Below are positions 1,316 to 64,000 of a stretch of DNA of 64,000 nt, piece after piece. Within the stretch, counting starts at the first letter, position 1, and every line of letters begins with the position of its first letter. Under the pieces are notes generated by a model that was given only the letters and a program-made list of their open reading frames with translations, searched no databases and was not told where the DNA came from. The DNA is from Chiloscyllium plagiosum (Eukaryota), in the NCBI RefSeq assembly GCF_004010195.1, contig NC_057718.1, forward strand, positions 61,094,233 through 61,158,232, written 5' to 3'. A program made the translations under genes and the position numbers.

Positions 1316-2739
1316 GCACAAACATTTGATTAGACAGCACCTGGAGTCCAGAGTGCACTTTTGGTCTCATTATCTCAGGAAAGATACAGTGAGAGTGCAA
1401 AAAAGTTCACCAGTTTCCAGGTTGTCAGACTGTCCTGTGAAGAGAGATTGGACAAATGGTGCCAGTATTTTCTAGATTGATGAAAATAATCTAATTGAAA
1501 TTTAGAAATACTTAAAAGGTTAGACAGGATAGATGCAGGTTAATTATTTCCCCCCTCCTCCCAGCTGGGTGTCAAGAACCAGGGGCATAATTTAATGACA
1601 TTGTGGAAGCCATATAGATCTAACATTACGAGAGCTTTCTTTACTCAGAGATTATAATCTTTACCACAGAGGGGTGGGTTACATTTGAGTACATTTAAGG
1701 TATGGGTGGCACATTTTTCACTATTAGTTTTGATATACAGAGTTGTGGGGATGGGCTGGGTAAAAGTTGTTCAAGTTTTCAATCCGCCATGATTAAATGA
1801 TGGGATAGCCTCAAATGGGCTGAATGATCTACTCCTGTTCCCTCATTCCTTGGATTGGGTTGGTTACCCTCCTAGAGGGAAAAATCAATAATACTTGGAA
1901 ATGAATGTATTAGTTGTCCTGGTTGGAGCCCCCGTCTTGTGGCCTCAGTTAAAGTTAGAAATAGATAGGTTGGAAGCAAATTTGAGTCAGAAATAGCTTT
2001 CTCAGCTTTTAACCTCATGTTTGACCCTAACCTACTTGAATCATTTGAAATTTCGACTTGGAGTTTGAGCTTTATCTGGGTAAACTGTCCAATGTTCACT
2101 GTGTTGTTAAGACACTTCATAAAGTTAAGTACTTGCAATGTACTTGGTGTAGCAGGGACACATTCTTATGTATTAAAGAAATATAATGAATGAGTGAGTA
2201 ACACTGTTCCCCACTAAGATTTGAGATTTCTTAAAGCTTCCTTTATTCAAATGAAAATACTGGTGGCCTTATCCTTTTTGAAGAAGTTGGATAAGGGAGG
2301 CATATTAAACAATGCTACCTTACTTGCGTCTGCTCAGTTATAATGACTCAGGCTCATGCAAGTCAAATCACATCGTACACCTTAAGCTTCTCATGCACAT
2401 TGATACTCTATGCTACGGATGAAGCTGGAATGGTCAGACTGTACAGTCAGCTTCAATAGATTATATACACTTAAGAATACTTGACAGTATAATTCTTAAA
2501 GCTTATTAGGTCATATTTGGACCAAGTAAGTACATTCATGAGTTAATCTTAATATGACTGTAACACTGAGCGACATGAAGCAGGTTTCAGTATACTGCAA
2601 ACTAGTTTTGACACTTATTGGAAATAAGGTAAAATGAACACTATAAAATTCACCATTTGATGTAAATCTGTTCTTTAAGTTTCCTTCCCATAAAAAAAGA
2701 CATGTTTGCCAAGTGACCAATTCAATACCACCATTTTGG

Positions 2740-3478
2740 TAGAGGTCAGTTAGCTGGGTGGTTGGGTTTCAATGGAGCATTGGTTCAGTTCCTGCACTAG
2801 CTCAGGTTACCATGAAGGCCTAAAGAACAAAGAAGAACAGGAAACAACACAGTATGGCACCAGCCCATAGGCACTCCAAGCCTGAGCCAACACATTTTGC
2901 CCTTCTATTCTAAAACTGTCTTCACTTATGGTACGGATTGGCACATTTTTGATTATTAGTATCATATGCAGGGATATGGAGATTGGCTGGGTAAACATTG
3001 TTCAATCCACGTTTTCAATCCACCATGATTGACTGATGGGATAGCCTGAAAAGGGTTGAATGGCTTACTCCCGTTCCTATGTTCCTTGGATTTGGGTTGG
3101 TTACCCTCCTAGAGGGAAATACCAATAATACTTGGGAAATGAATATATCCCTCTGTTCCCTTTCTACTCATATATTCGTCCATATGTTTCTTAAATGCTG
3201 TTATCGTGTCTGCTTCCACCACCTCTGGCAGCACGTTCCAGGTACTCTCCACCCTTTGTGTGAAAACCCCCCCGGCTCATCTCTTTTAAACTAGCCCTTT
3301 CCCCCAGCTCCCACACCTTGAACCTGTGCCCCCTAGTAATTGACCCCTCCACCCCAAGTATGAAAATTATCCTTCTCATCCTCACTCCTCATCTGAGGTA
3401 AGGTGACCCTCAAGTTAAAACACCATCAGTCATCTCTCGCTAGTAACAGAGTGGGACTATGCTGACTTTATCTTTACC
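2740..3478 (+). mobile_element. tRNA-derived SINE split by nested insertions (pieces ~2740-2821 and ~3386-3478)
   Basis: A-box-like 'ggtcagttagct', B-box-like 'ggttcagttcc'; body resumes 'ctgaggtaaggtgaccctcaagttaaa' after the insert. Confidence 0.6.
2822..3385 (-). mobile_element. CR1 3' fragment, itself interrupted at ~2930-3148
   Basis: Minus-strand 'EGSITRGHRFKV' ORF2 C-terminus; tail near 2822-2840. Confidence 0.75.
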
Positions 3479-22961: not shown

Positions 22962-23450
22962 AATTCATTCACAGGATGTGGGTGCTACTGGCCAAGCCGG
23001 CATTTATTATCCATCCCTAACTGCCCAGAGGGCAGTTAACAGTCAACTACATTGCTATGGGACTGGAGTCACGTGTAGGCCTGAACAAGTGAGGGAGACA
23101 GTTTCCTTCCTAAAGATCATTAGTGAACCAGATGGGCTTTTCCAACAATTGACAATGGTTTCATGGTCATCATTAGATTACAAATTCCAGATATATATTG
23201 ATTTCAAATTCCACCATCTGCCATGGTAGGCTTTGAACCCAGTTCGCTAGAACATTGCCAGTGTCTCTGGGTTAATAGTCCAGCTCCATTCCTGATAAAG
23301 GGCTTTTGCCCAAAACGTCGATTTTCCTGCTCCTCAGATGCTGCCTGACCTGCTGTGCTTTTCCAGCACCACTCTAATCTAAACTCTGGTTTCCAGCATC
23401 TGCAGTCCTCACTTTTGTCCAGTGATAATACCACTAGGCTATCACTTCTT
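22962..23450 (-). mobile_element. tRNA-headed SINE (LINE-B derivative) with a PLE insert
   Basis: A box TAGCCTAGTGG (23431-23441), B box GGTTCAAAGCC (23229-23239), LINE-B tail at the left end. Confidence 0.85.
23284..23416 (+). mobile_element. PLE family 1 terminal fragment, mutated hammerhead
   Basis: ctgataa-agggc-tttt-gccc-aaaacgtc; gtccag duplicated at 23278-23283 and 23417-23422. Confidence 0.85.
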
Positions 23451-24829: not shown

Positions 24830-25480
24830 AAGAACCACAGACTGCCTATCGTGCAAAAGTAGGTCATTCAGCCATTTGAGTCCGCACTGACCCTCCAAAG
24901 AGTATCTCACTCAGACAGACTCCCCCACCCTATATCCACAACTCTGCACTTCCCATGGCTAAATCAAGATTAGAGTGGTGCTGGAAAAGCACAGCAGGTC
25001 AGGCAGCATCCAAGGAGCATGAAAATCAACATTTCAGGCAAAAGCCCTTCATCAGGAATGAGACAGGGAGCCTCCGGGGTGAAGAGATAAATAGGAGGGG
25101 GCTCTCTCTCCACACTGGAGGCTCCCTGCCTCATTTTTGATGAAGGGCTTTTGCCCAAAACATTGATTTTCCTGCTCCTTGGATGCTGCCTGACCTGCTG
25201 TGCTTTTCCAGCACCACTCTAATCTTGACTCTGATCTCCAGCATCTGCAGTCCTCACTTTCACCCAGTTGACTTCCCTTGATTAATCCACCTCACCTACA
25301 GGAAATTTAGCATGGCCGATCCACCTGCACTTCTTTGGACTGCAGGAGGAAACCAGAGCACCCTAAGGAAACCCATGAAGATACAGAGAGAATGTGCAAA
25401 CCCCACACAGGCAGCTACCCAAGGTTGGAATTGAACCTGGGTCCCTGACGCTATGCTAACCACTGAGACACTGTACCAAT
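24830..25480 (-). mobile_element. HE1-type V-SINE interrupted by a fold-back PLE
   Basis: 'ttggactgcaggaggaaaccagagcacc...ggaattgaacctgggtccctg' matches the HE1 copies at 49536 and 60640. Confidence 0.8.
24966..25268. mobile_element. Fold-back PLE family 1 insert (two inverted terminal repeats)
   Basis: ~24966-25088 is the reverse complement of ~25105-25227; both arms carry decayed hammerheads. Confidence 0.85.
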
Positions 25481-36944: not shown

Positions 36945-39900
36945 TTTTTTAAAATTCATTTGTGAGATGTTGGCATCACTGGCTGGGCAGCATTTATCGC
37001 CCATCTCTAGTTACCCTTGAGAAGGTGGTGGTGAGCTGCCTTCTTGAACCGCTGCAATCCACCTGTTGTAGGTTGATCCACAATGCCATTAGGGAGGGAA
37101 TTTCAGGATTTTGACCCAGTGACAGTGAAGGAACGGCAATACATTTCCAAGTGAGGATATGAGTAACTTTATGGGGAAATTGAAGGTGGTTGTGTTCCCA
37201 TATATCTGCTACTCTTGTCCTTCCAGACAGAAACGATTGTGTTTGGAAGGTGCTGTCTGAGGATCTTTGGCAAATTTCTGCAGTTCATCTTGTAAATACT
37301 GCACACTGTTGTTACTGAGCGTCAGAGTAGGTGTTTATGGATGCCAGTCAAGTGGGCTGCTTTGTCCTTGATGGTGTCAAACTTCTTGAGTGTTGTTGGG
37401 GTTGCACTTATCCAGGTAAGTGGAGAGTACTCCATCACACTCCTGACTTGTGATTGTAGGTGGTGGATAGGCTGTGTGAAGTCAGGAGGTTTGTTAGTCA
37501 TCGCCGTATTCCCAGCCTCTGACCTGCTGTCTTGGCTGCTGTTTTTATATGGTGAGTCCAGTTGAGTTTCTGGTCAATGATAGCCCCAGTGACGTTCTTA
37601 GCGGGGAATTCAGTGATGTTAACACCATTGAGTGCCAAGGCGTGGTGGTTAGATGGTCTCTTATCGGTGATGGTTTTCGCCTGGCATTTGTGTGGTGCAA
37701 ATATTACTAGCCATTTGTCACCCAAAACCTGGATATTGTCCAGATCTTGTTGCATTTGAATGGGCCTAGTTCAGTATCTGAGGATTCGCGAATGGTGTTG
37801 AATATTGCGCAGTCATTGACAAACATCTCCATTCCTGACTATGACAGAAAGAATGCCATTGATGAAGCAGCTGAAGATGGTTCGGGGAAAGACATTACCC
37901 TGAGGAACTCCTGTAGAGATAGAACATAGAACAACATAGCACAGTACAGGCCCTTCTGCCCTTGATGCTGTACTGAACTTTTATGCTACTCTAAGATCAA
38001 ACTAACTACATAACTTTTATTTTACTATAACCCATGTGCCTATCCAAGAGTCACTCAAACGTCCCTAATGTATCTGACTCTACTACCACTGCTGGCAGTG
38101 CATTCCAAGCATCCACCACTCTCTGTGTAAAGAACCTATCTCTGACATCTCCCCTAAACCGTCCTCCAATTACTTTAAAATTATGCCCCCTTGCGATAGC
38201 CATTTCTGCTCTGGGAAAAGGTCTCTGCCTGTTCACTCTATCTAAACCTGTCATCATTTTGTACACCTCTATCAAGTCGTCTCTCACCCTTCTTCACTCC
38301 AATGAGAAAAGCCTTAGCTCCCACAAACTTTCTTCAAAGGATATGCCCTCAAATCCAGGCAGCATCCTGATAAATCTCCTCTGCACCCTCTCTAAAAGTT
38401 TCACTTACTCCCAATAATGAGACAACCAAAACTGAATGCAATATTCCAAGTGTGGTCTAAGCAGGGCTCTATAGAACTGCAGCATAATCTCACAGTTCTT
38501 AAACTCAATCTCCCTGCAAATGGAAGCCAACACACCATAATGCCACCTTAATAACCCTATCAACTTGGGTGGCAACTTTGAGGATCAATGACATGGACCT
38601 CAAAATCCCTCTGTTCCTCCACACTGCCAAGAGTCCTGCCTTTAACTCTGTATTCTGCATTCAAATTCAACCTTCCAAAATGAATCACTTCATTTGGACT
38701 CCATCTGCCACTTATCAGCCCAGTTCTGCATCCTGTCAATGACCTGTTGCAACCTACAACAGATACCCTGGAGCTGAGATAACCCGACCTCCAACAACCA
38801 CAACCATTCTGCTAATTGTGAGGTATGATTCTAATCATTGGAGAGTGCCCCCGATACCTACTGATTCCAGTCTTGCTAGGAATCCCTGATGCCACGTTCA
38901 GTCGAATGCAGCCTTGATGTCAAGGGCTGTCGCTGTCACCTCACATCTGGAATTCAGCTCTATTATCCATGTTTGACCCAAGGCTAAAATGAGATCAGGA
39001 GCTGAGTGACCCTGGCAGAACCTAACCTGAGTATCACTGAGCAGGTTATTTCTGAGCGGGTGCTGCTTGATGGTACTGTTGATGTCACCTTCCATCACTT
39101 TGCTGATGATCAAGAGTAGACTGATGGGGTGATAATTGGCTGGGTTGGATTTGTCCTGTTTTTTTTTATGTACAAGATATACTTGGGCAATTTTCCAGTG
39201 TTTACTGTACTGGAATAGGTTCTGGAGCAGTACTTCAGTACTTTTGCTGGAATGTTGTCAGGGCCTTTGTATCCAGTGTCTCCAACCATTTCTTGATATC
39301 ATATGGAGTGAATGAAATTGGCTGAAGTCTGGTATCTGCAATGCTGGGGAGCACTGGAGGTGGCAGAACTTGGCAATTCTGGCTGAAGATTGCTGCAAAA
39401 GCTACAGCCTTATCTTTTGCACTGATGTGCCGGGTTCTTCCATCATTGAGGATAAGGGTATTTATGGAGCCTCTTTCTCCACAGAGTTGTTTAATCATCT
39501 ACCACCATGCACAATTGGATGTAGCATGACTGCAGAGCTTACATCTGATCCGTTGGTTGAGGGATCTCTATCACTTGCTGCTCGTGCCATTTGGCATGCA
39601 AGTAATCTGATTTAGTGGCTTCACCAGGTTGACACCTCATCTTCAGGTGGTGCTCCAGGCATATCCTACTGCACTCTCCACTGAACCAGTGTTGATCTTC
39701 TGGCTTAATTGTAATAGTTGAGTGGGGGATATGCTGAACCATGAGGATACAGATTGTCCTGGAGTACAGTTCTGCTGCTATATATGTCCCACAACACCTC
39801 ATGCATGCCCAGTCTTGAGTTGATAGGTCTGTTTGATTTCTGTCCCATTTAGGACAGTGATAGTGCCACACAATATGATGGAGATTATTTCCAATGTGAA

Positions 39901-40787
39901 TGCAGGATTTTGTCTCCACAAGGACCGTGCGGCAGTCACTCTTAATGATACTGTCATGGACAGCTGCATCTGCTGCTGGCAGATTGCGAAGAGTGAGGTA
40001 AAGTATGTCTTTCCCGCTTGTGGATCCCGCACCACCTGCCACTGATCCAGTCAAGCAGCTAGGTCCTTTAGGACCTGACCAGCTCATTCAGTAGTACTGC
40101 TGCTGAGCCACATTTGGTGGTGGGCATTGAAATCCCTCACCCAAAGTACTTTCTGTGCCCTTGTCATCCTCAGTGCTTCCTACAAGTGTTGTTCAATATG
40201 GAGGAACATCGATTCATCAGCTGAGGGAGGATGGAACATGATAATTAGCAAGCGGTTTCCTTGCCTATGTTTAACCTGAAGCCATGAGACTTCGTGGGGT
40301 CCAGACTCAATGTTGAGGACTCGCATGGAAACTTCCTCCTGACTGTAAACCACTGTGCTGGCACTTCTGCCGGGTCTGTCTTGCCGGTGGGATGGGATAT
40401 ATCCTTGGATGGTGATGGTGGTGCCTGGGACATTGGCTGCAAGGTATGATTGCATGAGTGTGATAATGTCAGGCTGTTGCTTGCTTGACTAGTCAGTGAG
40501 ACAGCTCTCTAAAGTTTGGCACAAGTCACCAGATGTTAGTAAGAAGGACTTTGCAGGGTCGACAGAGCTTTTTCTGTCATTGTCTTTTCCAGTGCCTCGG
40601 TAGATGCCAGGTGATCTCTCCGGTTTCATTTCTTTGAGACTTTGTCATGATTGGTGCAACTGAATGTCTTGCAAGGTCATTTCAGGGGCAACTGAGAGCC
40701 AACCACATTGCTGTGGGTCAGGAGTCACATGTAGGCCAGATCAAGTGAGGATGGCAGATCTCCTTCCCTGGAAGGACATTAATGAAC
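36945..40787 (-). mobile_element. CR1-group 'LINE-B': APE-RT ORF, no ORF1 visible, 5' end shared with the SINE body
   Basis: APE start LLTNIW..V...KQQPDIITLMQSYL at ~40550-40440; ALDIKAAFD; MQQDLDNIQVLGDKWLVIFAPHKCQ; tail 'caagggtaactagagatggg...aatgaat'. Confidence 0.85.
37918..38760 (-). mobile_element. CR1 3' fragment nested in LINE-B
   Basis: ORF 38051..38287 'MRDDLIEVYKMMTGLDRVNRQ...VVDAWNALP'. Confidence 0.9.
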
Positions 40788-40809
40788 CTTGTAATAATCT
40801 CTCTCATAT

Positions 40810-41986
40810 AAATAAAAATTTACTCACTGATGCTCAGTTTGGTAATTGTGCTCTGTCTTTATTATATACTTGTCTCAAGTATGGACAAAAGAGCTGAATT
40901 GCAGAAGAGAGGAGAGGATGACTGCCCTTGTCAATAAGGTAGCTTTTACAGACTGTGATATGAAGGAGTCCTAGCAAACAATGATCTACAGAAATCAGAT
41001 GGAAAACTCTCTGCTGGTTGGAGTCATACCTGGCACATAGGAAGCTGGCTGTGGCTGTTGGCAGTCAGTCATCTCCACTCTGAAACATCCCTCCAGGAAT
41101 TGCTCATCACAGTGTCTTTGGCCTGGCCCTTTTCAGCTGGTTCATAAATGATCGTCTACCATCAGAAGGTCAGTAGTGGCGATGTTCGCTGACATTTGCA
41201 CAATGTTCAGCACTGTTCATGACTCGTCCGAGTCTGAAACAGTCCATGATCAAATGCCGCAAGACCCCGACAATATGGGCTGAGAAGTGGCAAGTAACAG
41301 TTGTGCCACCCAAATGCCGGATAATGACCATCACCAACAAAAAGAAAATCTTGTCAGCGCCCCTTGAAAGTCAATGGTATTGCCACTGCTAACTCCCCAC
41401 CATCAACATCTTAGACATTACCATTGACCAGAAAGTGAATCAGACCAGCCATATAAACACTGTCGCTTTCAGACTCTAGGAATATTGTGGCAGCAACTCA
41501 CTTCCTAATTCCCCAAAGCCTGTGCACATCAACAGAGCACAAGTGAGGAGTATAGTGGGGTATTTCCCATTTGCCTGGGTGGGTGCAGCACCCACAACAC
41601 TAAATCAACCTGACACGATCCAGGAAAAAGCAGACTATTTGATTGGGACTACATCCACAAACATCCACTGCCTCCACCTGGTAGCAGCCATGTATATGAT
41701 CTACAGATGGACTGCAAGAATATACCAAAGCTCCTTAATTGGTATATTCTATACCTGTGACCACCACCAGCTGGAAAGACAAGAGCAGCAGTTACATGGG
41801 AACATCGCCTCCTGAAAGTTCCTATCCAAGCCACTTACTGTCCTGACTTGGAAATATATCGCCGTTCCTTCAGTATCCCTGGGTCAATATCCTAGAACTC
41901 CCTAACAGCATTGTGGGTCTCACTACACCACATGGACTTTCAAGAAGGCTGCTCCCAAACACCTTTTCAAGGGCAACTAGGAATGG
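40810..41986 (+). mobile_element. LINE-B RT-to-3' fragment
   Basis: WLESYLAHRK, MFADICTMF, QVRSIVGYFPFAWVGAAPTTL; tail 'caagggcaactaggaatggg'. Confidence 0.85.
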
Positions 41987-42640
41987 GCGGCATTTGGTAT
42001 GTTTTCCTTTATTGGTCAGAGTATTGAGTATAGGAGTTGGGAGGTCATGTTGTGGCTGTACAGGACATTGGTTAGGCCACTTTTGGAATATTGTATGCAA
42101 TTCTGGTCTCCTTCCTATCGGAAAGATGTTGTGAAACTTGAAAGGGTTCAGAAAAGATTTGCAAGGATGTTGCCACGGTTGGAGGATTTGAGTATAGGGA
42201 GAGGCTGAACAGGGTGTGGCTGTTTTCCCTGGAGCGTCGGAGGCTGAGGGGTGACCTTATAGAGGTTTACAAAATTATGAGGGGCATGGATAGGGTAAAT
42301 AGGCAAAGTCTTTTCCCTGGGATCGGGGACTCCAGAACTAGAGGGCATAGGTTTAGGGTGAGAGGGCAAAGATATAAAAAAGACGTAAGGGGCAACCTTT
42401 TCACACAGAAGGTGGTACATGTATGGAATGAGCTGCCAGAGGAAGTGGTGGAAACTGGTACAATTGCAACATTTGAGAGGCATTTGGATGGGTATATGAA
42501 TACGAAGGATTTGGAGGGATATGGGCTGGGTGCTAGCAGGTGGGAATAGATTGGGTTGGGATATCTGGTCGGCATGGACAGGTTGGACCAAAGGGTCTGT
42601 TTCCATGCTGTACATCTCTATGACTCTATGACTCTATGAC
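41987..42640 (+). mobile_element. CR1 3' fragment (relatively young)
   Basis: 'LYRTLVRPLLEYCMQFWSP'; (ctatga)n tail. Confidence 0.92.
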
Positions 42641-45168: not shown

Positions 45169-45384
45169 GAGAAAGTGAGATCTGCAGATGCTGGAGATCA
45201 GAGATGGAAATGTGTTGCTGGAAAAGCGCAGCAGGTCAGGCAGCATCTAGGGAACAGGAGAATCGATGTTTCGGGCATGAGCCCTTCTTCAGGAATGAGA
45301 AGGGCTCACGCCCGAAACATCGATTCTCCTGCTCCTTGGATGCTGCCTGACCTGCTGCGCTTTTCCAGAAACACATTTTCAGCT
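45169..45384. mobile_element. Fold-back PLE family 1 insert
   Basis: ~45207-45288 inverted against ~45298-45380; near-intact minus hammerhead at ~45261-45297 (AUC site). Confidence 0.88.
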
Positions 45385-46541
45385 GGGAACTGGTGGAGCC
45401 TCGTCAGACCATGTGAAAGGCTTTATAGGAAGACTGTAATGTCTATCTTTTTAGCTTTATTTCTTATTTTCCTAATTTGTACAGTATATATCTGTGATGT
45501 TGTGTAACAGATTTCCTTTATTTTCTCTATTTTCTGTATCTGAGATCTGTACCTCGGTACTTTGTACCTAAGATGGCACCATGTGTGGCTGACAGTGTAC
45601 AGGCATGAGTCACTGCTATTGCTGGAATGAAAGTCTCCAATCTTCAACACCATCTCACCTCCACATGCCCTCGCCACTATGAGTCTTCACTGACCTCGCC
45701 AATGCAGGTGCCACTGATGCTGCCGGGTACCGCACCAGCCCAAACTCAACACCTTCCTGTACTCAGACATTCCTAGACAGTGTTATCCAGTCTTACCTGG
45801 GCAGAGTTCATGTGCTGCAGTCTCCTCCATGAATTCACAACAGTCTCAGGGAACTCCGAAAGCTGGTCATATATCCACCACTTCTCCAAGAACCCATCCA
45901 AACTGTCGCTCCTGAGGCCCTTCTTCACTGTCCTGTGACTGCCTTCTCTCTTCTGAGGATGAGTGTCTGCCTCAGACACCCACTCCTGCTCATTGCTGCT
46001 GTACACCTCACCAAGTCTTAATTATTCTCATCCTGCAGTTTAGGTGCTAGCGTCTGCACTGGGGCATTATCAGAGGTGACACTTCATCCTTGGCAACACA
46101 TCTTCCTATTCTTGGCTGAGGGTTCTCGAGATGGCCAGTATGGCCGAGGACAACTCACTCCTGTGTGAGACACAAGAGGAAATGATCAGTGTCCTCCATG
46201 GAGATACTGAAGGCTCTGCAATTCTAAAGCTTCCACATTACTCAGGGCTCAGCACACTTTCTGACCATGGGTCATGCAGTTCCAGCAGCCTCCTCTGAAC
46301 TACACATGAATAGGTCTCCTCAAGGCCACTGCACCTTTATCATTCCCTACTTGTTCCTCCTGGGGGATCCTAGCTAGCTCCACAGTCATGTCTTCCACTG
46401 GTCTGACTGTCATTAGAAGCAATGGAATGGACAGTCTGAGCCCACTTCTCTTGCAAAGGCAAGAACACAAAGCTTTGCTGTCCTTTGGCAGCACCTCCGC
46501 AATGTCACTACCAGCAGGTTGTCATGCTTACCTATCCCAGT

Positions 46542-47130: not shown

Positions 47131-47722
47131 GGCTTCCTGTTGTGTGTGAAGGTAATCAAGATGCAGACATGATTGGATGTCTCATGTCTAGTGGAGGATG
47201 AGAGGTCGGAGTTCACCAAGGTATTGTACATTTGGTAGCCTCACATCCTTAGCTTGGTGATGTAGGATTATTGAGAGAAGCTTTTTTATTCAGGTGGCAA
47301 CATGGCCACAAGCTGACCAGCACGCACAGCTTTATTGATAACTGCAAATACCAGTCTGCGTAGAAATAGTTAATGCTCACCAGTTCATTTGTGAAGGAGC
47401 TCAAGTCAGCAAAAGTGAAGATGCAGAGGTCTAAAAGCTGCACATTTTAAACAATTATGCAAGGCTAGTTTACAGAAGATGTTCAAAGGGGGAACAACAC
47501 AAACTGGTTCCTCAGCAATGATTTAAACTTTTGTGAAACGTTGCTGGCCAGCATGACAACAGAGATGCAAAATGGAGAACCACAATGGGGACAGAGTTGG
47601 ATCTTAATCAGCATATTATACACTCCAGGAGAAAGTGAGGACTACAGATGCTGGAGTACCAGAGTTGAAAAATGTGGTGCTGGAAAAACATAGCAGGACA
47701 GGCAGGATCCGAGGAGCAGGAG

Positions 47723-47758
47723 AATCGACGTTTCGGGCATTAGCCCTTCTTCAGGAAT
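47723..47758 (-). ncRNA. Minimal hammerhead ribozyme (PLE family 1), core intact
   Basis: AUUC-CUGAAGA-A-GGGC-uaau-GCCC-GAAAC-GUC-GAUU. Confidence 0.85.
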
Positions 47759-47908
47759 GAGGCTGGTGTGCCAAGCGGGCTGAGATAAAAGGTAGTGAGG
47801 AGGGACTTGGGAGAGGGGCGCTGGGAATACGATAGGTGGAAGGAGGTGAGGGTGAAGGTGATAGGCTGGAGAGGGGGTTGGGGCGGAGAGGTTGGGAAGA
47901 AGATTGCA

Positions 47909-48241
47909 NNNNNNNNNNNNNNNNNNNNNNNNNNNNNNNNNNNNNNNNNNNNNNNNNNNNNNNNNNNNNNNNNNNNNNNNNNNNNNNNNNNNNNNNNNNN
48001 NNNNNNNNNNNNNNNNNNNNNNNNNNNNNNNNNNNNNNNNNNNNNNNNNNNNNNNNNNNNNNNNNNNNNNNNNNNNNNNNNNNNNNNNNNNNNNNNNNNN
48101 NNNNNNNNNNNNNNNNNNNNNNNNNNNNNNNNNNNNNNNNNNNNNNNNNNNNNNNNNNNNNNNNNNNNNNNNNNNNNNNNNNNNNNNNNNNNNNNNNNNN
48201 NNNNNNNNNNNNNNNNNNNNNNNNNNNNNNNNNNNNNNNNN
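47909..48241. other. Assembly gap (N run)
   Basis: 333 consecutive N. Confidence 1.
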
Positions 48242-49535
48242 AGGGAGTCGCGGAGGGAGTGGTCTCTCCTGAATGCTGATAGGGGAGGGGAGGGAAATAT
48301 ATCCCTGGTGGTGGGGTCTGTCTGGAGGTGGCGGAAATGACGGAGGATGATACGATGTATCCGGAGGTTGGTGGGGTGGTAGGTGAGGACCAGTGGGGTT
48401 CTGTCCTGGTTGCGATTGGAGGGGCGTGGCTCAAGGGCGGAGGTGCAGGAAGTGGAGGAGATGCGGTGGAGAGCGTCGTCGACCACGTTGGAGGAGAAAT
48501 TGCGGACTTTGAAGAAGGAGGCCATTTGAGTTGTTCATTAGTGGAATTGGTCCTCCTGAGAGCAGATGCAGCGGAGGCGGAGGAATTGGGAATATGGGAT
48601 GGCGTTTTTACAGGGGGCAGGGTGGGAGGAGGTCTAATCTAGGTAGCTGTGGGAGTCGGTCGGTTTGTAGTAAATGTCTGTGTTGAGTTGGTCGCCCGAG
48701 ATAGAAATGGAGAGGTCAAGGAAGGGGAGGGAGGAGTCTGAGACGGTCCAGGTAAATTTGAGGTCGGGGTGGAAGGTTTTAGTAAAGTAGATGAACTGTT
48801 CAACCTCCTCATGGCAGCACAGGGTAGCGCCAATACAATCATCGATGTAGCGGAGGAAAAGGTGGGGGGTGGTGCCAGTGTAGCTGCAGAAGATGGACTG
48901 TTCCACACATCCGACGAAGAGGCAGGCATAACTGGGGTCCATGCGGGTGCCCATGGTTACTCCTTTGGTTTGGAGGAAGTGGGAGGATTGGAAGGAGAAG
49001 TTGTTAAGAGTGAGGACCAGTTCAGTCAGTCGAAGGAGGGTGTCAGTGGAAGGGTACTGTTTGGGTCGGCGGGAGAGGAAGAAGCGATGGGCTTGGAGGC
49101 CTTCGTGATGGGGGATGGAAGTGTATAGGGACTGGATGTCCATTGTGAAGATAAGGCATTGGGGGGCGGGGAAGCCAAAAAATGGTGGAGGTGTAGGGTG
49201 TGGGTGGTGTCCCGAATGTAGGTGGGGGGTTCTTCGACTAAGGGGGACAGGGCAGTGTCGAGATATGCAGAGATGAGTTCGGTGGGGCAGGAGCAGGCTG
49301 AGACAATAGATCTGCCGGGGCAGTCGGGTTTGTGGATTTTGGGTAGGAGGTAGAAACAGGCAGTGCGGGGTTGTGGGACTATGAGGTCAGAGGCAGTGGA
49401 TGGGAGATCCCCTGAGGTGATGAGGTTATGGATGGTCTTGGAGATGATGGTTTGGTGGTGTGTGGTGGGGTCATGGTCAAGGGGGCAGTAGGAGGAGGTG
49501 TCCACGAGTTGGCGTCTAGCTTCAGCGGTGTAAAA

Positions 49536-49857
49536 ATTAGATTAGATTAGATTACTTACAGTGTGGAAACAGGCCCTTCGGCCCAACAAGTCCACATCGC
49601 CCCGCCGAAGCGCAACCCACCCATTCCCCTACATTTACCCCTTACCTAACACTACGGGAAATTTAGCATGGCTAATTCACCTGACCTGCACATCTTTGGA
49701 CTGTGGGAGGAAACCAGAGCACCTGGAGGAAACCCACGCAGACACGGGGAGAACATGCAAACTCCACACAGTCAGTCGCCTGAGGCGGGAATTGAACCCG
49801 GGCCTCTAATGCTGTGAGGCAGTAGTGCTAACCACTGTGCCACCGTGCCGCCCACTA
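49536..49857 (-). mobile_element. HE1-type V-SINE, full length, apparently young
   Basis: Head GGGCGGCACGGTGGCACAGTGGTTAGCACT, B box GGTTCAATTCC, CR1-type 3' end, (TCTAA)n tail; absent from the homologous site in the right arm. Confidence 0.92.
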
Positions 49858-50493
49858 ATCGGTGCGCCAAACTATCACAGCGCCTGCCTTGTCTGCTGGT
49901 TTGATGGTGAGGTTGGGGTTGGAGCGGAGGGAGTGGAGGGCTGTGTGTTGTGAGGGTGAGAGGTTGGAGTGGGTGAGAGGGATGGACAGGTTGAGGCGGT
50001 CAATGTCGCGGCAGCAATTGGCTATGAAGAGATCGAGGGCGGGTAAGAGGCCAGCACGGGGTGTCCAGGTGGTTGGGGTGTGTTGGAGGTGGGAGAAGGG
50101 ATCATCAGAGGGTGGGTGAGAGTCCTTGTTGAAGAAGCAGGTACGGAGGCGAAGGCGGCAGAAGAAATGCTCGATATCTAGCTGCGTGTCAAACGCATGG
50201 ATCCGGGAGCATAGGGGGATGAAGGTGACGCCTCTGCTGAGGACTGATCGTTCAACCTCAGAGAAGGGGAGGTCTGGAGGGATAGTGAAAATACGGCAGG
50301 GCTGAGGCTAGGACCTGGAGTGGGGCTGGAGCTGGGAGTGGGGGCGGAGTCGGTCATGGGGGCGAAGATTGACGTGGGGGCAGAGATCGACGTGAGGGAG
50401 GAGATCAATGTGGGGGTGGAGATTGACGAGGGGGCGGCGTGGTCCTTGAGCAGGTGAGTGGCGTCACTGAGGGTGGAAGTGGCTGCGGCGATG

Positions 50494-52683
50494 GCCACTC
50501 ACCTGCTCAAGGACCACGCCATCCCCACGTCAATCTCTGCCCCCAAGTCGATCTCCGCCCCCACGCTGATATCGAGCATTTCTTCCGCCGCCTTCGCCTC
50601 CGTACCTACTTCTTCAACAAGGACTCTCGCCCACCCTCTAACGACCCCTTCTCCCACCTCCAACACACCCCATCCACCTGGACACCCCGTGTTGGCTTCT
50701 TACCCGCCTTCGATCTCTTCATATCAAACTGCCGCCGCGACATTGACTACCTCAACCTGTCCATCCCTCTCACCCACTCCAACCTCTCACCCTCACAACA
50801 CACAGCCCTCCACTCCCTCCGCTCCAACCCCAACCTCACCATCAAACCAGCAGACAAGGGAGGCGCAGTAGTAGTTTGGCGCACCGATCTTTACACCGCT
50901 GAAGTTAGATGCCAACTTGCGGACACCTCCCCCTAACCGCCCCCTTGACCATGACCCCACCTCACACCATCAAACCATCATCTCCCAGACCATCCATAAA
51001 CTCATCACCTGAGGGAATCTCCCATTCACTGCCTCCAACCTCATAGTCCCACAACCCCGCACCGCCCGTTTCTACCTCCTACCCAAAATCCACAAACCCG
51101 ACTGCCTTGGCCGACCCATTGTCTCAGCCTGCTCCTGCCCCACCAAACTCATCTCCACATACCTTGACACGGTCCTGTCCCCCTTAGTCCAACAACTCCC
51201 CACCTACGGTTCGGGACACCACTCACGCCCTCCACCTCCTCCATGATTTTCGCTTCCCCGGCCCCCAACGCCTTATCTTCACGATGGACATCCAGTCCCT
51301 ATACACTTCCATCCCCCATCACAAAGGCCTCCAAGCTCTTCGCTTCTTCCTCTTCCGCCAACCCAACCAGTACCCTTCCACTGACACCCTCCTTTGACTG
51401 ACTGAACTGGTCCTCACTCTTAACAACTTCTCCTTCCAATCCTCCCACATCCCCCAAATCAAAGGAGTAGCCATGGGCACCTGCATGGGCCCCAGTTATG
51501 CCTGCCTCTTCATAGGATATGTGGAACAGTCCGTCTTCCGCAGCTACACTGGCACCATCTTCCGCAGCTACACTGGCACCACCCCCCACCTTTTCCTCCG
51601 CTACATCGATGATTGTGTCGGCGCTACCTCGTGAACAGTTCATCCACTTTATTAACACCTTCCACCCTAACCTCAAATTTACCTGGAACGTCTCAGACTC
51701 CTTCCTCCACTTCCTTGATTCTCCATTTCTATCTCGGGTGACTGACTCAGCACAGACACTTACTACAAACCGACCAACTCCCACAGCTACCTAGATTACA
51801 CATTCTCCCACCCTGCCCCCTGTAAAAATGCCATCCCATATTCCCAATTCCTCTGCCTCCGCCGCATCTGCTCCCAGGAGGACCAATTCCAATACCAAAC
51901 AACTCAAATCGCCTCCTTCTTCAAAGACCGCAATTTCCCCTCCGATGTGGTCGACGACGCTCTCCACCGCATCTCCTCCACTTCCCCCACCTCCGCCCTT
52001 GAACCCTGCCCCTCCAATCGCCACCTTCCACCCCACCAACCTCCGGATACATCATATCATCCTCTATCATTTCCACCACCTCCAGACAGACCCCACCACC
52101 AGGGATATATTTCCCTCTCAGGAGAGACCACTCCCTCCGCGACTCCCTCATCAGGTCCACACCCATCACCAACCCAACCTCCACTCCCGGTACCTTTCCC
52201 TGCAACCACAAGATGTGCAAAACTTGCACCCACACCTCCCCCCCTCACCTCCCTCTAAGGTCCCAATGGATCCTTCTATATCCATCGCAAATTCACTTGC
52301 ACCTCCACACACATCATATACTGCATCCACTGCACCTGATGTGGTCTTCTCTACATTGGGGAGACAGGCTGCCTACTTGCGGAACATTTCAGGGAACACC
52401 TCTGGGACACCCGCACCAACCAACCCAACTGCGCCGTGGCTGAACACTTTAGCTCCCCTCCCACTCCGCCAATGACATGCAGGTCCTTGGCCTCCTCCAT
52501 CGCCAGACCCTGGCCACAGGACACCTGGAGGAAGAGCGCCTCATCTTCCGCCTAGGAACACTCCAAGCGCCCCTCCCCCAAATTCCCTCTCCCCTACCTG
52601 TTATCTCAGCCCGTTTGGCACACCAGCCTCATTCCTGAAGAAGGGCTTATGCCAGAAACGTCGATTCTCCTGCTCCTTGGATG
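50494..52683 (+). mobile_element. PLE family 1, right arm of palindrome (RT + GIY-YIG pseudogene)
   Basis: TIKPADKGGAVVVW, LPKIHKP, FLRYIDD; FTCTSTHIIYCIHCT*CGLLYIGETG at ~52290-52370. Confidence 0.95.
52631..52666 (+). ncRNA. Minimal hammerhead ribozyme (PLE family 1), stem II closing pair mismatched
   Basis: AUUC-CUGAAGA-A-GGGC-uuau-GCCA-GAAAC-GUC-GAUU. Confidence 0.7.
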
Positions 52684-52841
52684 TTCTACATTCTGCCAAA
52701 CTCCACTTTCAGCCCTAGCCTGCTGAATCTATTGACTGACCCATCTCTGTAACAGTTAAGGACCAGACAGTCTGAAAATCCTGCACCGGTTGTGATCTCC
52801 AACCCACAAACGTTTGCCCTCAGTGGAGAGTTTAGAGCCAA

Positions 52842-53202
52842 GGGGAAGCTATGGCCTAGTTGTATTATTCCAGGGTGATTAATCCAGAGACCCAGGTTAT
52901 GTTTGAGGGAACTGAGTTAGAATCTTGCCATGCCAAATGGTGGAATTTGAATTGAGTCTTTAAAACGAAAATCTGGAATTGAGGGTCTAATGAAAGCCAT
53001 CATTAATTGTTGGGAAAAATACCTAATCTGGTTTACGAATGTTCTTTAAGGACGGAAACTGTTGACCTTACCTGATCCGGAAAGCATGTGACTCCAGACT
53101 CACAGCAATGTAATTAACTCTTAACTGCCCTCTGGCCAATTAAGTACGGGCAATGAATGCTGGCCTGGCTAGAGACACCTACATTGGAAATAAATAAAAA
53201 AA
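52842..53202 (+). mobile_element. tRNA-headed SINE (LINE-B derivative)
   Basis: A box TGGCCTAGTTG, B-box-like GAGTTAGAATC, body 'catgtgactccagactcacagcaatg', LINE-B tail. Confidence 0.85.
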
Positions 53203-57260: not shown

Positions 57261-57269
57261 CTTTAAGGT

Positions 57270-59400
57270 TTTTTTTCAAATATCATTTACGTTGGGCCTC
57301 CTATGCGCCTTTCAAATCGTTCTTGGGCAGATGGTCTACGCTATATTCTTGAACTGCTACAGTTTACTTATTGTAGTTACAGCTATAGTGCCATGAGAAG
57401 AGGAGTTCCAGGATTTTGAACCAAAGACACTGAAACAGTGGCCAAATATTGCCATGTCAAGATGGTGAATGGCTTGGAGGGCAACTTGTAGATGGTTTTA
57501 TAATGAGGTCAGGAACTGTGTGGTCCTGGCAGAACCTAAACCTAAAATAGCGAATAGATTATTGCTGAGCAAGACCTGACTAATAGTATTGTTCATGACT
57601 CCACTGATCACTTTACTGACAATTGAGAGTAGAATAATGGGGCGGTAATTGATCAGGTTGGATTTTTCCTGCCTGTGTGTACAGGATATATTTGGGAAAA
57701 ATTCCACATGGCCAATAAATGCCAATATTGTAACTATCTAACCAGGTACAGCTGCACCTGATTGTGGTTAGTTCTGGAGTGTACAACTTTAATTCTTTTC
57801 CCAGAATATTGAGGTTGTCTAGTATCTTGATATCACATGGGGTGAACAAAATTGGCTGAAGACTGGCATCTGCAATGTTGAGGATCACTGGTGGAAGCCA
57901 AGATGGATCATCCGTTCAACACATCTGCCTGAAATATACTGTGTCATCTTTTACACTAATGTGCTGAGCTCACCCATCATTGAGAATGGGGCTAGTTGCG
58001 GATCCTCTTCTTCCAATGAATTGTTTAATTGCAAACCATCATGCACAGCTGAATATGGCAGAACTGCAGAACTTAGACCTGACCTGTTGATTGTAGGCTT
58101 GTTTAACCCTGTCCAAAATGCTGCTTTGTCACTTCACCAAGTTGACACTTCATTGTTCGCTATATCTGGTGCTGCTCCTGGCATGTCCTCCTAAACTCTT
58201 CATTGAACCAGGGTTTAGTCCCCTGCTTGGATGGTAATGATGGAACAAGGGATATGCTGGGCCATGAGGTTGCAGATTGTGCTGGAGTATATTGATTTGT
58301 TATTGGCAGCCCACAGCACCTCATGGATAACTAGTCTTGAGCCACTAGATCTATTCAAGATCTGCCCCATTTAGCACAATCATAGTGCCACAGAATACGA
58401 TATAAGATATCCTCAATGTGAAGGCACGACTCTGCCTCCACAAAGACTGTCCGGTGGTCTCTCATCCCAATCCTTTCATGGCCAGATGCATCTGCAGTCA
58501 GCAGTTTTGTAAGGATGAAGTAAAGTATGTTTTTCCCTCTTGGTGGTTCCCTCACCATCTGCCAGAGACCCAGTCTATCAGTTATGCCCTTTCAGGTACA
58601 AACATCTTGATTAGTCACAAAGCTGCTGTGCTATTGTTAGTGACTGACATTGTAATCCTCTACATTCCGTGCCTTTGCCAACCTCAGTGCTTCCTCCAAA
58701 TGGTGTTTAAAAGGAGTATTAATACATTGGCTGAAAGGAGGGCAGGTCATGATAGTTAGAAGGAGATTTCCTAGCCCATGTTTGACTTGGTGCCATGAGA
58801 TGTTATAGACTGTGGATTCAATGTTGTGGCTTTCTAAGTCACTTCTCTCTTGGCTTTATACCATTGTGCTGCCAGCTCTGCTGCGCCTGTCCTGGCAGTG
58901 GGACCAGACATCTCCTGGGATTGTGCTGGAGTTGTCTGAGACACTACCTATAAGACATGATTGCAAGAATATGCTATATCAAGCTGTTGCTTGACTGACC
59001 TGTGAGATGCTTTCCCTCCTTTTGCAATAGCCTCCAGATATTAGCAAGGAGGATTTTGAATGGGCATCAGTGCTGTTTCTCATGCCTAAGTCAATCCGGG
59101 TGGTAGGTCTTGCTTTATTCCTTTAACTTTGTATTGCTTTGAGACAGCTAAGTAGCTTGCTAAACTATATCAGAGCACTGTTAAGAATCAACCACACTGT
59201 TGGACTCTAGAGTCATGCATAGTCTAAGTCAGGTCAGATTTTCTTCTCAAGAAGACAGCAGATGGAACTTTTTAGGACAATTGACAATGATTTGATGAGG
59301 CTTTTAATTCAACAAATTTTGATTTCAATTTCCATGATCTGCCATCTTGGGATTTGAACCTGGGTCTCCAGTTTATTAGAGTCATGGTTTAATGCAGTGA
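57270..59400 (-). mobile_element. Second LINE-B copy (older, RT centre deleted) retaining the tRNA-like head
   Basis: NYRPIILLSIVSKV; VREPPRGKNILYFILT; APE start KILLANIW at ~59060; B box GGTTCAAATCC at 59350-59360. Confidence 0.8.
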
Positions 59401-60639
59401 AATATCAGCAAATGAATGTGCACCAGACAGGGGGGAAAATGTGCAAAAGCTGTGAATGATCATGTGGGTCCACAGACAGAAAACAATGTCCTAGAAATCA
59501 ATCAAACTGCAGAGCTTGTGGATAGCACCATCACTCGGAAAAGATGTGCAGAACAAATAAAAGATGGTAGACAACTTACCCAAGTGAAAACACCAGGGGG
59601 GAATGAGAAACAAAATAAACCAAATACCCAGGTTCTGAAAGACAACAATAAGTGTGAGAACACGGCATAAGTAGGAACCATACAATTGTGTGAAACAGCT
59701 GGATGGCACTGTTCCTGGCGGAATAAAATCCACACAACCCATGAGATCAGGAATGGGATGAGAACTAAGATTACTACCATAAATCTGAAGCCAAAGGTTG
59801 ATTTTGAAGAACATTGTAACATAATACGTTCAGACTATTCTAGAAGGTCTTTTCTGAAAATCTGGAAGAAAATTGTTATCCAAGGAAAGATGCTCTGAAA
59901 TCAACCAACTCATGCTAATAGAATAACAAGGAAATAAGATTTAGCAGCTAGGAATAACACAAATCAAAGGGACACATAAAGTAAAAGACATTAGCCGCAT
60001 CTCCCATATCATAGAAATAGATGCTCTTGCTTGTCTAGAGTTGAGCAGTTGTCAAGAGCTGTACTTGATTTCAGTCAAACATGAGATGAAGGAGATGTCA
60101 TTGAGGCTCCATCCATTAAAAAGCACCCTCTGTGCAGAAGCAATGAAGATGAGGTACAAACGTACCCAGAGTGTTTTCCTGAGATAGTTGATGCTGAGAG
60201 GATTTCAAACAACACATCAGTATCGACCCAATGTAAAAGTCATTGATCCATTCCCCCATGTAAAATGCCAATTGAGTTAGAAGGGAAGTTTGAAAGAGAG
60301 CTCTAAGAGATTGAAGAAAATAAAACATTACCAGTGTTTTAAATTTATCCATTTGATAATTCCACGGGGGTAAGCAAAAATCCAATGTGATGGCCAAGAA
60401 TCTAGCTTAATGCAAAAGATGTAAATTAAACAAAGAAGAGGAATTATTACCCTAATCCAGCACTGATTATTTTGACCTACGTAGAGCTGGAAGACAGAAC
60501 ATATAGCAATGTCTCTCATAGGATACTTAGATTCACTATCAATAATCATGGCTGCTTGCATCAGATTGCAAAGAGCTTACAATGCCTAACACAACTCAGT
60601 ACATATCTTCAGGAGAGAATATGGAATGTCAATGTTAAT

Positions 60640-61399: not shown

Positions 61400-64000
61400 G
61401 GTGAATCACTGATTTAAAAACATTCCTTGTAAATAGCAGAGCGCAGGCTGAGCAGGAATGGACACGGGACTGCTGAATGAGTGAAGTAATATATTTAGGT
61501 GGTTGTGTTACCCAAAACACTGCTTAGGTAGTGCCTCCCACCCATCCTCCTCATTTCACCAAAAAAACAGGTTCTGAGCACCAGACTGGTAATGTATCTA
61601 GTTGTTTTTTCTTTATTTTTCATTAGTCTCTTTGGGAATTTAGAATAGTGGGAATGGAGGTTAGGGCAAATGCATGTTCCTCCTGCAGAATGTGGGAGAT
61701 AAGGGTCACCACTAGTGTCCCTGCTGACTGCATCTGCAGGACGTGCACCCAAATCCAGCTCCTCGAAAACCGCATTAGGGAGCTGGAGCTGGAGCTGGAG
61801 CTGGAGCTGGATGAACTTTGGATCATTCAGGAGGCGGAGGAGGTTATTGAGAGGAGTCTCAAGAAGGTAGTCACACCTCAGGTACAAGAAAAAGGCAGAT
61901 GGGTTACAGTCAGGGGATGAAAAGGGAACTGGCAGGCAGTGCAGGGAATCCCTCTGGCTGTTCCCATCAATAATAAGTATCCCGTTTTGGATACAGTGGG
62001 GGGAGGGGGATGATTTATCAGGCACAGAAATTTAGAATAGTGGGAATGGAGGTTAGGGCAAATGCATGTTCCTCCTGCAGAATGTGGGAGATAAGGGTCA
62101 CCACTCGTGTCCCTGCTGACTGCATCTGCAGGAAGTGCACCCAAATCCAGCTCCTCGAAAGAGAGACTCATGGATGGTGTGTTGCCTCCCAGGTGCCAGG
62201 GTCCGTGATGTCTCAGATCATGTTTTCGGGATCCTTGGGAGGGGGGGGAAGCAGCCCCCTGTTGTGGTTCACATAGACACCAACGACATAGATAGGAAAA
62301 GAGAAGGGGATTTAAGGCAGAAATTCAGGGAGCTAAGGTGAAAACTTAGTGCTAGAATAAACAGAGTTGTTATCTCTGGTTTGTTACCCATGCCGTGTGC
62401 TAGCAAGGTGAAGAGTAGGAGAGAGAACAGTTGAACACGTGGCTACAGGGATGGTGCAGGAGAGGGGGTTTCAGATACCTGGATAATTGGTTCTTATTCT
62501 GGAGGAGTTGGGACCTCTACAAATAGAATGTTCAATACCTGAAGCGAAGGGGTACCAATATCCTAGGGGGATATTTGCCAATGCTGTTCGGAAGGGTTTA
62601 AACTAATTTAGCAGGGAGATGGGAACCTAAATTGTAGTTCCAATGTCCAGGAGGTTGAGATTAGTGAGGTCAGAAATGAGGTTTCAAGGTCGCAAGAGTT
62701 CACCAGCAAGCAGAAAGTTGGTTTGAAATGTGTCTGCTTTAACGCCAGAAGTATCTGGAATAAGGTGGGTGAACTTGCAGCATGGGTTGGTACCTGGGAT
62801 TTTGATATTGTGGCCATTTCAGAAACATGGCTAGAGCAGGAGACCAGGGACAGGAATGGTTGGTGCAGGTTCCAGGATTTAGATGTTTCAGTAAGAACAG
62901 GGCAGATGGTAAGGGAGGGGGGTGTGACATTGTTAGTCAAGGACAGTATTACGGTGGCTGAAAGGACGTTTGAGGACTCGTCTACTGAGGTAGTATAGAC
63001 TGAGGTTAGAAACAGGAAAGGAGAGGTCACCCTGTTGGGAGTTTACAATCAGCCTCCGAATAGATCCAGAGATGTAGAGGAAAGGATAGCAAAGATAATT
63101 CTGGATAGGAGCGAGAGTAACAGGGTAATGTTATGGGGGCATTTAACTTTCCAAATATTGACTGGAAATACTGTTGTTTGAATACTTTAGATGGGCCAGT
63201 TTTTGGCCAATTTGTGCAAGAGGGTTTCCTGACACAGTATGTAGACAAGCCAACAAGAGGTGAGGCCACATTGGATTTGGAACTGGGTAATAAACTGGGC
63301 CAGGTGTTAGATTTGGAGTTAGGTGGGCACTTTGGTGATAGTGATCAAAATTCGGTTACGCTTACTTTAGCGATGAAAAGGGATAGATATATACCGCAGG
63401 GCAAGAGTTATAGCTGGGGGAAAGGCAGTTATAATACGATTGGGCAAGATTTAGGATGCATAGGATGGGGAAGGAAATTGCAGGGGATGGGCATAATTGA
63501 AATGTGGACCTTATTCAAGGAACAGCTACTGCATGTCCTTAATAAGTATGCACCTGTCAGGCAGGGAGGAAGTGATCGAGTGAGGGAGCCATGGTTTACT
63601 AAAGAAGTTGAATCTCTTGTCAAGAGGAGGAATAAGGGTTACGTTAGGATAAGATATGAAGCTTCAGTTAAGGCACTTGAGATTTACAAGTTAGCCAGGA
63701 AAGACCTAAAGCGAGAGCTAGGAAGAGCCAAGAGGGGACATGAGAAGTCATTGGCAGAAAGGATCAAGGAAAAGCCTAAAGCTTTCTATAGGTATATCAG
63801 GAATAAAAGAATGACTGGAGAAAGATTAGGGCCAATCAAGTATAGTAGTGGGAAGTTGTGCATGGAGTAAGAGGAGATAGGGGAAGCGCTAAATGATTAT
63901 TTTTCATCAGTATTCACACTAGCAAAAGACAATTTTGTCAAGGAGAGTATTGAAATACAGGCTACTTGACTGGACAGGATTGAGGTTCACAAGGAGGAGG
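61400..64000 (+). mobile_element. CR1 LINE 5' portion (5'UTR, ORF1 zinc finger/coiled coil/esterase, ORF2 APE); runs off the window
   Basis: ACSSCRMWE...CICRTC; VCCLPGARVRDV...HIDTNDI; CVCFNARSIWNKVGEL...DIVAISETWL; MGAFNFPNIDW. Confidence 0.93.
61458..61545 (+). ncRNA. Candidate variant type I hammerhead-like fold in the CR1 5'UTR (decayed in this copy)
   Basis: GGGA-CUGCUGA...stem GUAAUAUA/UGUGUUAC-cc-aAAA-CACUGC-uuag-GUAGUG-cC-UCCC. Confidence 0.4.

Follow-up and report, generated by a model that had tools for sequence, protein, structure and literature searches.

In textbook accounts, copying with RNA polymerase III (Pol III) is reserved for short, non-coding repeats. Canonical vertebrate CR1 elements carry an esterase ORF1 and a non-poly-A tail, neither of which occurs in the shark family described here. 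Non-LTR elements are described as using Pol II and SINEs as using Pol III (Kojima 2024, PMC10886601). That account also covers Cassandra, Helenus, and Ajax (TRIMp3), retrotransposons that likewise carry a Pol III promoter derived from a small RNA; unlike the coding LINE considered here, these are short (311–1263 bp), non-coding LTR elements, and their autonomous partners are argued there to require Pol II. RTE-1_DAn and related elements (Drosophila ananassae, RTE clade) are LINEs reported also to hold tRNA-like sequence (Kojima 2018, PMC5786205). The same source describes the bipartite SINEs Bov-tA, AfroSINE, and CoeSINE4, which combine a head, a LINE 5' part, and a LINE 3' tail, as do the SINE-sized forms reported below. 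In those RTE and Vingi systems, which in its account are the only LINEs found to supply SINE 5' parts, the head is on the SINE only, whereas here a CR1-group LINE is itself headed. DeuSINEs (SacSINE1, LmeSINE1, and AmnSINE1; PMC5499810, PMC4824008, PMC3747384) include a tRNA-headed shark SINE, SacSINE1, and are described as combining a Deu body with a tail of the L2 type; in the present family, the body is unlike the printed Deu domain, a comparison that sets SacSINE1 apart by its class rather than by its own sequence.

The closest described elements are the Zenon LINEs of elasmobranchs (Stuart et al. 2026, PMC13343379), for which a missing ORF1 is already a published clade trait. RhiTyp_, CarCar_, ScyCan_, SquAca_, and HypSab_Zenon also lack ORF1 and have a poly-A tail, and five of the seven elasmobranch consensuses are 3244–3314 nt in length, compared with 3282 nt here. 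The first 400 nt of the whale shark consensus are nearly identical, by eye, to our family majority. On these sequence comparisons, the family is Zenon, in the CR1 group. The nearest proteins are those of unnamed single-frame elements (41–42% identity), followed by woodlouse proteins (33%) and the genome's own CR1 (28%). The RT tree called for in the first-pass annotation, built from 38 RT regions with no named Zenon among them, places the family with the unnamed single-frame elements, near the woodlouse proteins and far from CR1.

The window, a stretch of 64,000 nucleotides of Chiloscyllium plagiosum DNA, contains several copies of the family. A genome search with the element noted in the window gave 41 matches. 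Searching with a better-preserved copy yielded 10,586 first-look candidates, and 40 of these were scored. A family majority sequence was built from 40 copies (36 of the 40 scored and four from the first search), with 8 kb taken around each. The family features of the window are as follows.

59335..59407, minus strand: head region of copy A (alignment to family majority)
59350..59360, minus strand: B box GGTTCAAATCC (pattern search of the window)
59147..59334, minus strand: body, common to the LINE and the SINE-sized forms (alignment to family majority)
59058..59146, minus strand: A-rich leader of copy A (alignment to family majority)
57501..59057, minus strand: endonuclease-RT frame of copy A, broken, with KILLANIW at its start; family positions ~420–2068
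57269..57496, minus strand: 3' end of copy A, with C-terminal coding remnant, tail, and A run, past a ~975-nt deletion
38761..40788, minus strand: 5' part of copy B, with body end, leader, endonuclease, and RT start; family positions 188–2296, 84% identity (alignment to family majority)
37921..38760, minus strand: canonical CR1 3' fragment, a later insertion in copy B and not family sequence
36945..37920, minus strand: 3' part of copy B up to the A tail; family positions 2293–3282
40853..41988, plus strand: separate, older copy of the same family, 5'-truncated; family positions 2057–3236, 75% identity (alignment to family majority)
22963..23443, minus strand: SINE-sized form, head and body directly on the Zenon tail
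52843..53202, plus strand: SINE-sized form, full length, with head, body, Zenon tail, and A run

Copy A (57269–59407) is a dead, worn copy of the elasmobranch Zenon LINE. It is old and internally deleted, with ~975 nt of the RT region gone by alignment to the family majority, to which it is only 71% identical. The first-pass annotation had read in it a B box on the minus strand, a SINE-like body, and then the endonuclease N-terminus, with no space for an ORF1. The B box is present at 59360–59350 (the B-box pattern has two matches in the window against 0.08 expected), the body motif lies at 59217–59180 on the minus strand, and the lack of space for ORF1 was confirmed. KILLANIW is encoded at 59057–59034 as described, except that it follows the body motif after 122 nt and not ~100 nt. 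A second copy claimed to have the same body-to-endonuclease join does so (copy B, 40788–36945). The A box is not recognizable in copy A, whose likeness to the family fades at ~59407, and copy B begins within the body, without a head. The window therefore shows the B box, body, and join with an incomplete head, and the complete head is known from copies other than these two. The SINE-sized form at 22963..23443 is interrupted near its 5' end by another short repeat (~23284–23416).

The family majority is 3282 nt in length, and copies are 86–91% identical to it. Its 5' end is fixed, 10 nt ahead of the A box TGGCCTAGTGG, and is followed by the B box, a body of ~220 nt, the A-rich leader, and the endonuclease, which begins at position 421; the majority also has a tRNA-like arm. 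The variable columns of the B box (C15/T17 and G23/A12) represent CpG decay from a perfect box. ORF1 is absent: the 420 nt 5' of the endonuclease are followed by one long endonuclease and RT frame, which runs for ~935 codons from the endonuclease start and is interrupted by just two stops, both at columns with a TGA/CAA/CGA mix, i.e., CpG decay. Pfam RVT_1 and Exo_endo_phos_2 were recognized on one natural copy, with stops read as X. The frame is followed by ~55 nt and then the A tail; most of the 21 copies listed have a fixed 3' end and then an A-rich run, that is, a poly-A tail. No convincing target-site duplications were found in these 21 copies with both ends. The family makes up ~3.4% of 592.5 kb of sampled DNA not chosen for it, consisting of the window, an adjoining 200 kb, 20 pieces of 10 kb from scattered places, and 30 CR1 loci. 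Some copies lie in or beside others: a SINE-sized form sits in the endonuclease region of locus L100, L062 and L093 adjoin other copies, and L078 is a further case of nesting or adjacency; this hints at a preference for their own kind or at local accumulation.

To judge the 5' end independently of the head, we used matches to an RT stretch (36 of 40, omitting the query, one duplicate copy, and two on short contigs). Twenty-eight of these 36 copies are 5'-truncated inside the frame, and their flanks have only short bits of other repeats in common. The other eight pass the endonuclease start and end at family positions 1, 1, 1, 6, 7, 37, 185, and 340; all eight carry the same leader, body, or head, and six extend up to the A box. 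None of the 36 has an alternative 5' end or an ORF1. The 40 head-selected copies, for which the head was in the query, include 32 that begin at the A box or ahead of it. The join between body and endonuclease is identical in all 40 and in the RT-selected copies that reach it. That the head is part of the LINE master, as opposed to chance SINE insertions, is supported by the single fixed join, the fixed 5' end, the lack of any other 5' end or of an ORF1, and published consensuses that carry this head. This agrees with the first-pass annotation, which had proposed a LINE with a captured tRNA-derived head and suggested counting collinear copies and looking for a differing 5' end, an ORF1, or a varying junction. 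None of those contrary features was observed in the 36 RT-selected and 40 head-selected copies, consensuses from four sharks and a ray have the same head, and the join is visible in the ray consensus.

The consensuses were compared by eye over the first 400 nt of each entry (Supplementary Table 2 of PMC13343379). All seven elasmobranch entries (white shark, whale shark, catshark, three dogfish, and ray) open with the same head and body, and the head is absent from the start of the two hagfish Zenon entries; the coelacanth entry starts with low-confidence flank and is uninformative here. The words "tRNA," "Pol III," and "promoter" occur nowhere in the main text of PMC13343379, and "tRNA" nowhere in its supplement; its passages on elasmobranch Zenon mention neither the head nor T-run loss, an out-of-frame AUG, or SINE-sized forms. 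The first-pass annotation had left open whether the element was already described: the family and its lack of ORF1 are known, and the tRNA-like head is present but unremarked in the published data. The accessible text of a whale shark preprint (10.1101/443036) has a single mention of CR1-Zenon. Within titles and abstract openings, a scope that places subscription journals, Repbase, and Dfam outside, neither a Pol III-driven autonomous LINE nor a tRNA head on shark Zenon is described. The hagfish CR1-7_EBu (PMC7245038 supplement) looks Zenon-like, with a poly-A tail and an RT motif; in contrast to the shark case, its partner SINEs are ordinary, with a tRNA head and a Meta body.

The head was not called a tRNA by ARAGORN (window and 32 loci) or Rfam (five loci). 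It was compared with 28 distinct tRNA sequences of the genome, which cover just 12 anticodon classes and include serine genes fetched on purpose. The three best matches are tRNA-Ser(AGA) (z 5.6–6.4), followed by Thr(AGT) (4.9), and the match to tRNA-Ser(AGA) spans the A box, anticodon arm, and B box. The head also retains hairpins resembling an anticodon arm and a variable arm. A tRNA origin of the head is well supported, and a serine isotype for its source is tentatively suggested. An ancestral elasmobranch Zenon probably acquired the head, either through template switching to a tRNA or by recombining, via the shared body, with a tRNA-headed SINE of its own.

Vertebrate Pol III terminates at runs of four or more Ts. 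The first-pass annotation had proposed testing the sense strand of the consensus for depletion of such runs (T4+), and the outcome was favorable: the majority has none, against 4.9 expected from base composition (P 0.007). Runs of three or more (T3+) number seven against 23.6 expected (ratio 0.30, P 6e-5). The same strand has 13 A4+, 12 C4+, and seven G4+ runs, near expectation; the loss is strand-specific. T3VT2 and T2VT3 are likewise absent from the 3282-nt majority. A profile of the 36 RT-selected copies has no T4+ and four T3+ runs, and, by eye, none of the seven elasmobranch consensuses has a T4 run within its first 400 nt. With the protein and the element's own codon pool held fixed, T3+ remains depleted (5 vs. 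12.5, P 0.0005). The absence of T4+ does not reach significance under that model (0 vs. 1.9, P 0.11) or under a first-order Markov model (P 0.13), because TT itself is depleted (0.71 of expectation). Under the CR1 codon pool, the expected number of T4+ runs is 8.1. These statistics describe one family's majority sequence, and so one evolutionary lineage.

Control sequences retain T runs. A shark CR1 profile from 30 copies has 11 T4+ in 3281 nt, and a profile of the elements that we take to be Penelope-like has four in 2271 nt; this profile and two CR1 3' profiles lie at 0.9–1.8 of expectation. Thirty-six headless metagenomic relatives (those of 73 with long matches), which have no B box upstream, contain 2–40 T4+ runs, with a T3 observed/expected ratio of at least 0.81. 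Dead copies of the family have T4 runs again, with one to four in 17 of 19 near-full copies, and the T4-free state of the master therefore had to be maintained. The 3' end has no clear terminator, which counts against a Pol III unit: T runs ahead of the A tail, present in many copies, were considered as the element's own terminator and not accepted, as they may be A-run decay; an internal A run also has T4 in eight of 40 copies. In the dead copies at loci L061–L100, A runs often read as a T run plus an A run, which is able to mimic a terminator.

We favor the reading, with a probability of about 0.65, that Zenon is an autonomous LINE transcribed from its head by Pol III. According to this reading, Pol III would transcribe the full 3.28-kb single-frame endonuclease-RT unit from the A-box/B-box head, every full-length insertion would bring its own internal promoter, and selection would then have cleared Pol III terminators along the whole unit. 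The features of a type 2 Pol III unit, an A box and a B box near the 5' end, occur in the family majority, and the B box alone in copy A. We infer promoter function for the head from sequence, and the T-run loss is the strongest, if indirect, sign that the head drove the whole unit as a Pol III promoter; that loss may instead reflect a general avoidance of TT on other grounds. Pol III is described as poorly processive, which counts against a 3.3-kb Pol III unit (PMC10886601). At 80% likeness, the family is covered by one poly-A single-cell run and by three contig sets; these show no 5'-end pile-up, a result uninformative on the polymerase and on start sites. Coverage is far deeper at the head than in the next bins, the head being shared with the SINE forms. 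Extended to sharks and rays as a group, the account would make Zenon a Pol III unit from a time before sharks and rays parted, with a 3.3-kb terminator-free, uncapped mRNA, a programmed -1 frameshift, and SINEs arising by internal deletion; this whole we put forward tentatively, as a possibility with the odds somewhat against it.

Translation is the least certain part of the explanation. Pol III RNAs are uncapped, and uncapped RNA is translated poorly. The long frame of the family majority has no in-frame AUG before codon 170. The nearest upstream AUG, at position 347, begins a frame of 35 codons, which overlaps the start of the endonuclease in a different reading frame; this short frame is intact in 30 of 40 copies. 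The AUG lies exactly 92 nt ahead of a conserved Asn codon in 25 of 40 copies and, among 33 further copies that could be scored, in 12, where this spacing is again the mode; at the corresponding site, copy A has ATA (59118–59116). By eye, the AUG is visible in six of the seven elasmobranch consensuses, the ray consensus having the same 92 nt, and it is in frame in one dogfish consensus with apparent deletions. Headless metagenomic relatives inspected by eye have an in-frame AUG. In the favored reading, translation of the uncapped RNA would begin at the AUG behind the A-rich leader; as this AUG and the endonuclease are in different frames, a -1 frameshift or re-initiation would likely be needed. 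Inspection of the leader by eye revealed no canonical slippery heptamer. An apparent third-position bias between species in the upstream short frame was attributed to CpG decay and rejected as evidence. In one headless metagenomic relative (L159:430–600), the N-terminal leader is in frame and carries short D-G-S and basic motifs; in the shark leader these fall in two different frames, and a profile search was not significant.

Chance SINE insertions ahead of 5'-truncated LINE copies would have abundant material, as SINE-sized forms with the same head outnumber LINE-type joins nine to three in the 592.5 kb. The junction, however, is invariant in all 40 head-selected copies and in the RT-selected copies reaching it, which already refutes this reading; moreover, no SINE tail lies between body and endonuclease, and the same join is seen in the ray consensus, leaving it practically no probability. 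It is unlikely, though to be taken seriously, that Pol II transcribes the unit, from the head region or by read-through, with the head serving another role, either as an element bound by TFIIIC or as a site for RNase P-type cleavage. Such a cut would set the 5' end as a ribozyme does in R2, and the T-run loss would stem from other selection, such as avoidance of U-rich decay or splice signals. LINEs are, after all, held in the available accounts to use Pol II without exception (PMC10886601, PMC5786205), the head keeps its anticodon-arm-like and variable-arm-like hairpins, and the absence of T4 is not significant against own-codon shuffles. Neither RNase P cleavage nor a Pol II promoter, however, predicts strand-specific T-run loss over 3.3 kb, and such loss is lacking in the presumed Pol II units, namely CR1, the Penelope-like family, and the 36 headless relatives. 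The cloverleaf is also too decayed for ARAGORN and Rfam, whereas the A and B boxes are kept.

The long form could instead be a giant SINE, an untranslated passenger made by Pol III and mobilized in trans by another, rarer Zenon whose 5' end is ordinary and whose AUG is in frame. The lack of an in-frame AUG ahead of the endonuclease and the poor translation of uncapped RNA would fit such a passenger. We nonetheless consider it improbable: the master holds an open frame of ~935 codons broken by two CpG-type stops only, another 5' end occurs in none of the 36 RT-selected copies, and the published elasmobranch Zenon consensuses are all headed.

Fourteen places with head or body were found in the 592.5 kb, of which nine are SINE-type, three continue into the endonuclease, and two are fragments; SINE-sized forms are thus commoner than headed LINEs in this sample. 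In the SINE-sized forms, the body is joined directly to the last 60–70 nt of the LINE, at position ~293 in seven and ~318 in two. Their majority equals the LINE front at 279 of 324 columns and, by eye, is similar to the other sharks' consensuses at several sites. These 350-bp forms are short and non-coding, as in the definition of SINE2, which the long form, coding for ~935 amino acids, is not. They may have arisen from the headed LINE by deletion, or a classical headed bipartite SINE may have given its head to the LINE via the shared body. Profiles of head, body, and leader had no significant match in the 73 metagenomic loci (best E 0.79), and the body is possibly the original Zenon 5' UTR. 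A labeling of the body as the Deu domain of SacSINE1 failed against the printed Deu, Meta, and UCON3 alignments (PMC7245038 supplement, by eye).

If the favored reading is true, a coding LINE on a tRNA promoter would break the working rule that assigns Pol II to LINEs and Pol III to SINEs. It would also provide a natural example of a long Pol III mRNA whose translation starts in an unusual way, and a one-step route from LINE to SINE in the CR1 group, where shared 5' parts were unknown. The claim is testable by standard promoter and retrotransposition assays.

The window has further repeats. At 62600–64000, and in loci L174–L203, there is canonical CR1 with an upstream frame; the CR1 majority shifts frame within the endonuclease region, perhaps an alignment artifact. 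The presumed Penelope-like elements are two copies in opposite orientation at 47640–52700, with long inverted matches at 48290–50178 and 50568–52117; one of the copies spans an N gap. Near-perfect short inverted repeats occur at 24964–25228 and 45195–45391 (arms of 124 and 94 nt; gaps of 17 and 9 nt). In each, a very common short repeat, probably the end of the Penelope-like element, is present as two copies arranged head to head or tail to tail.
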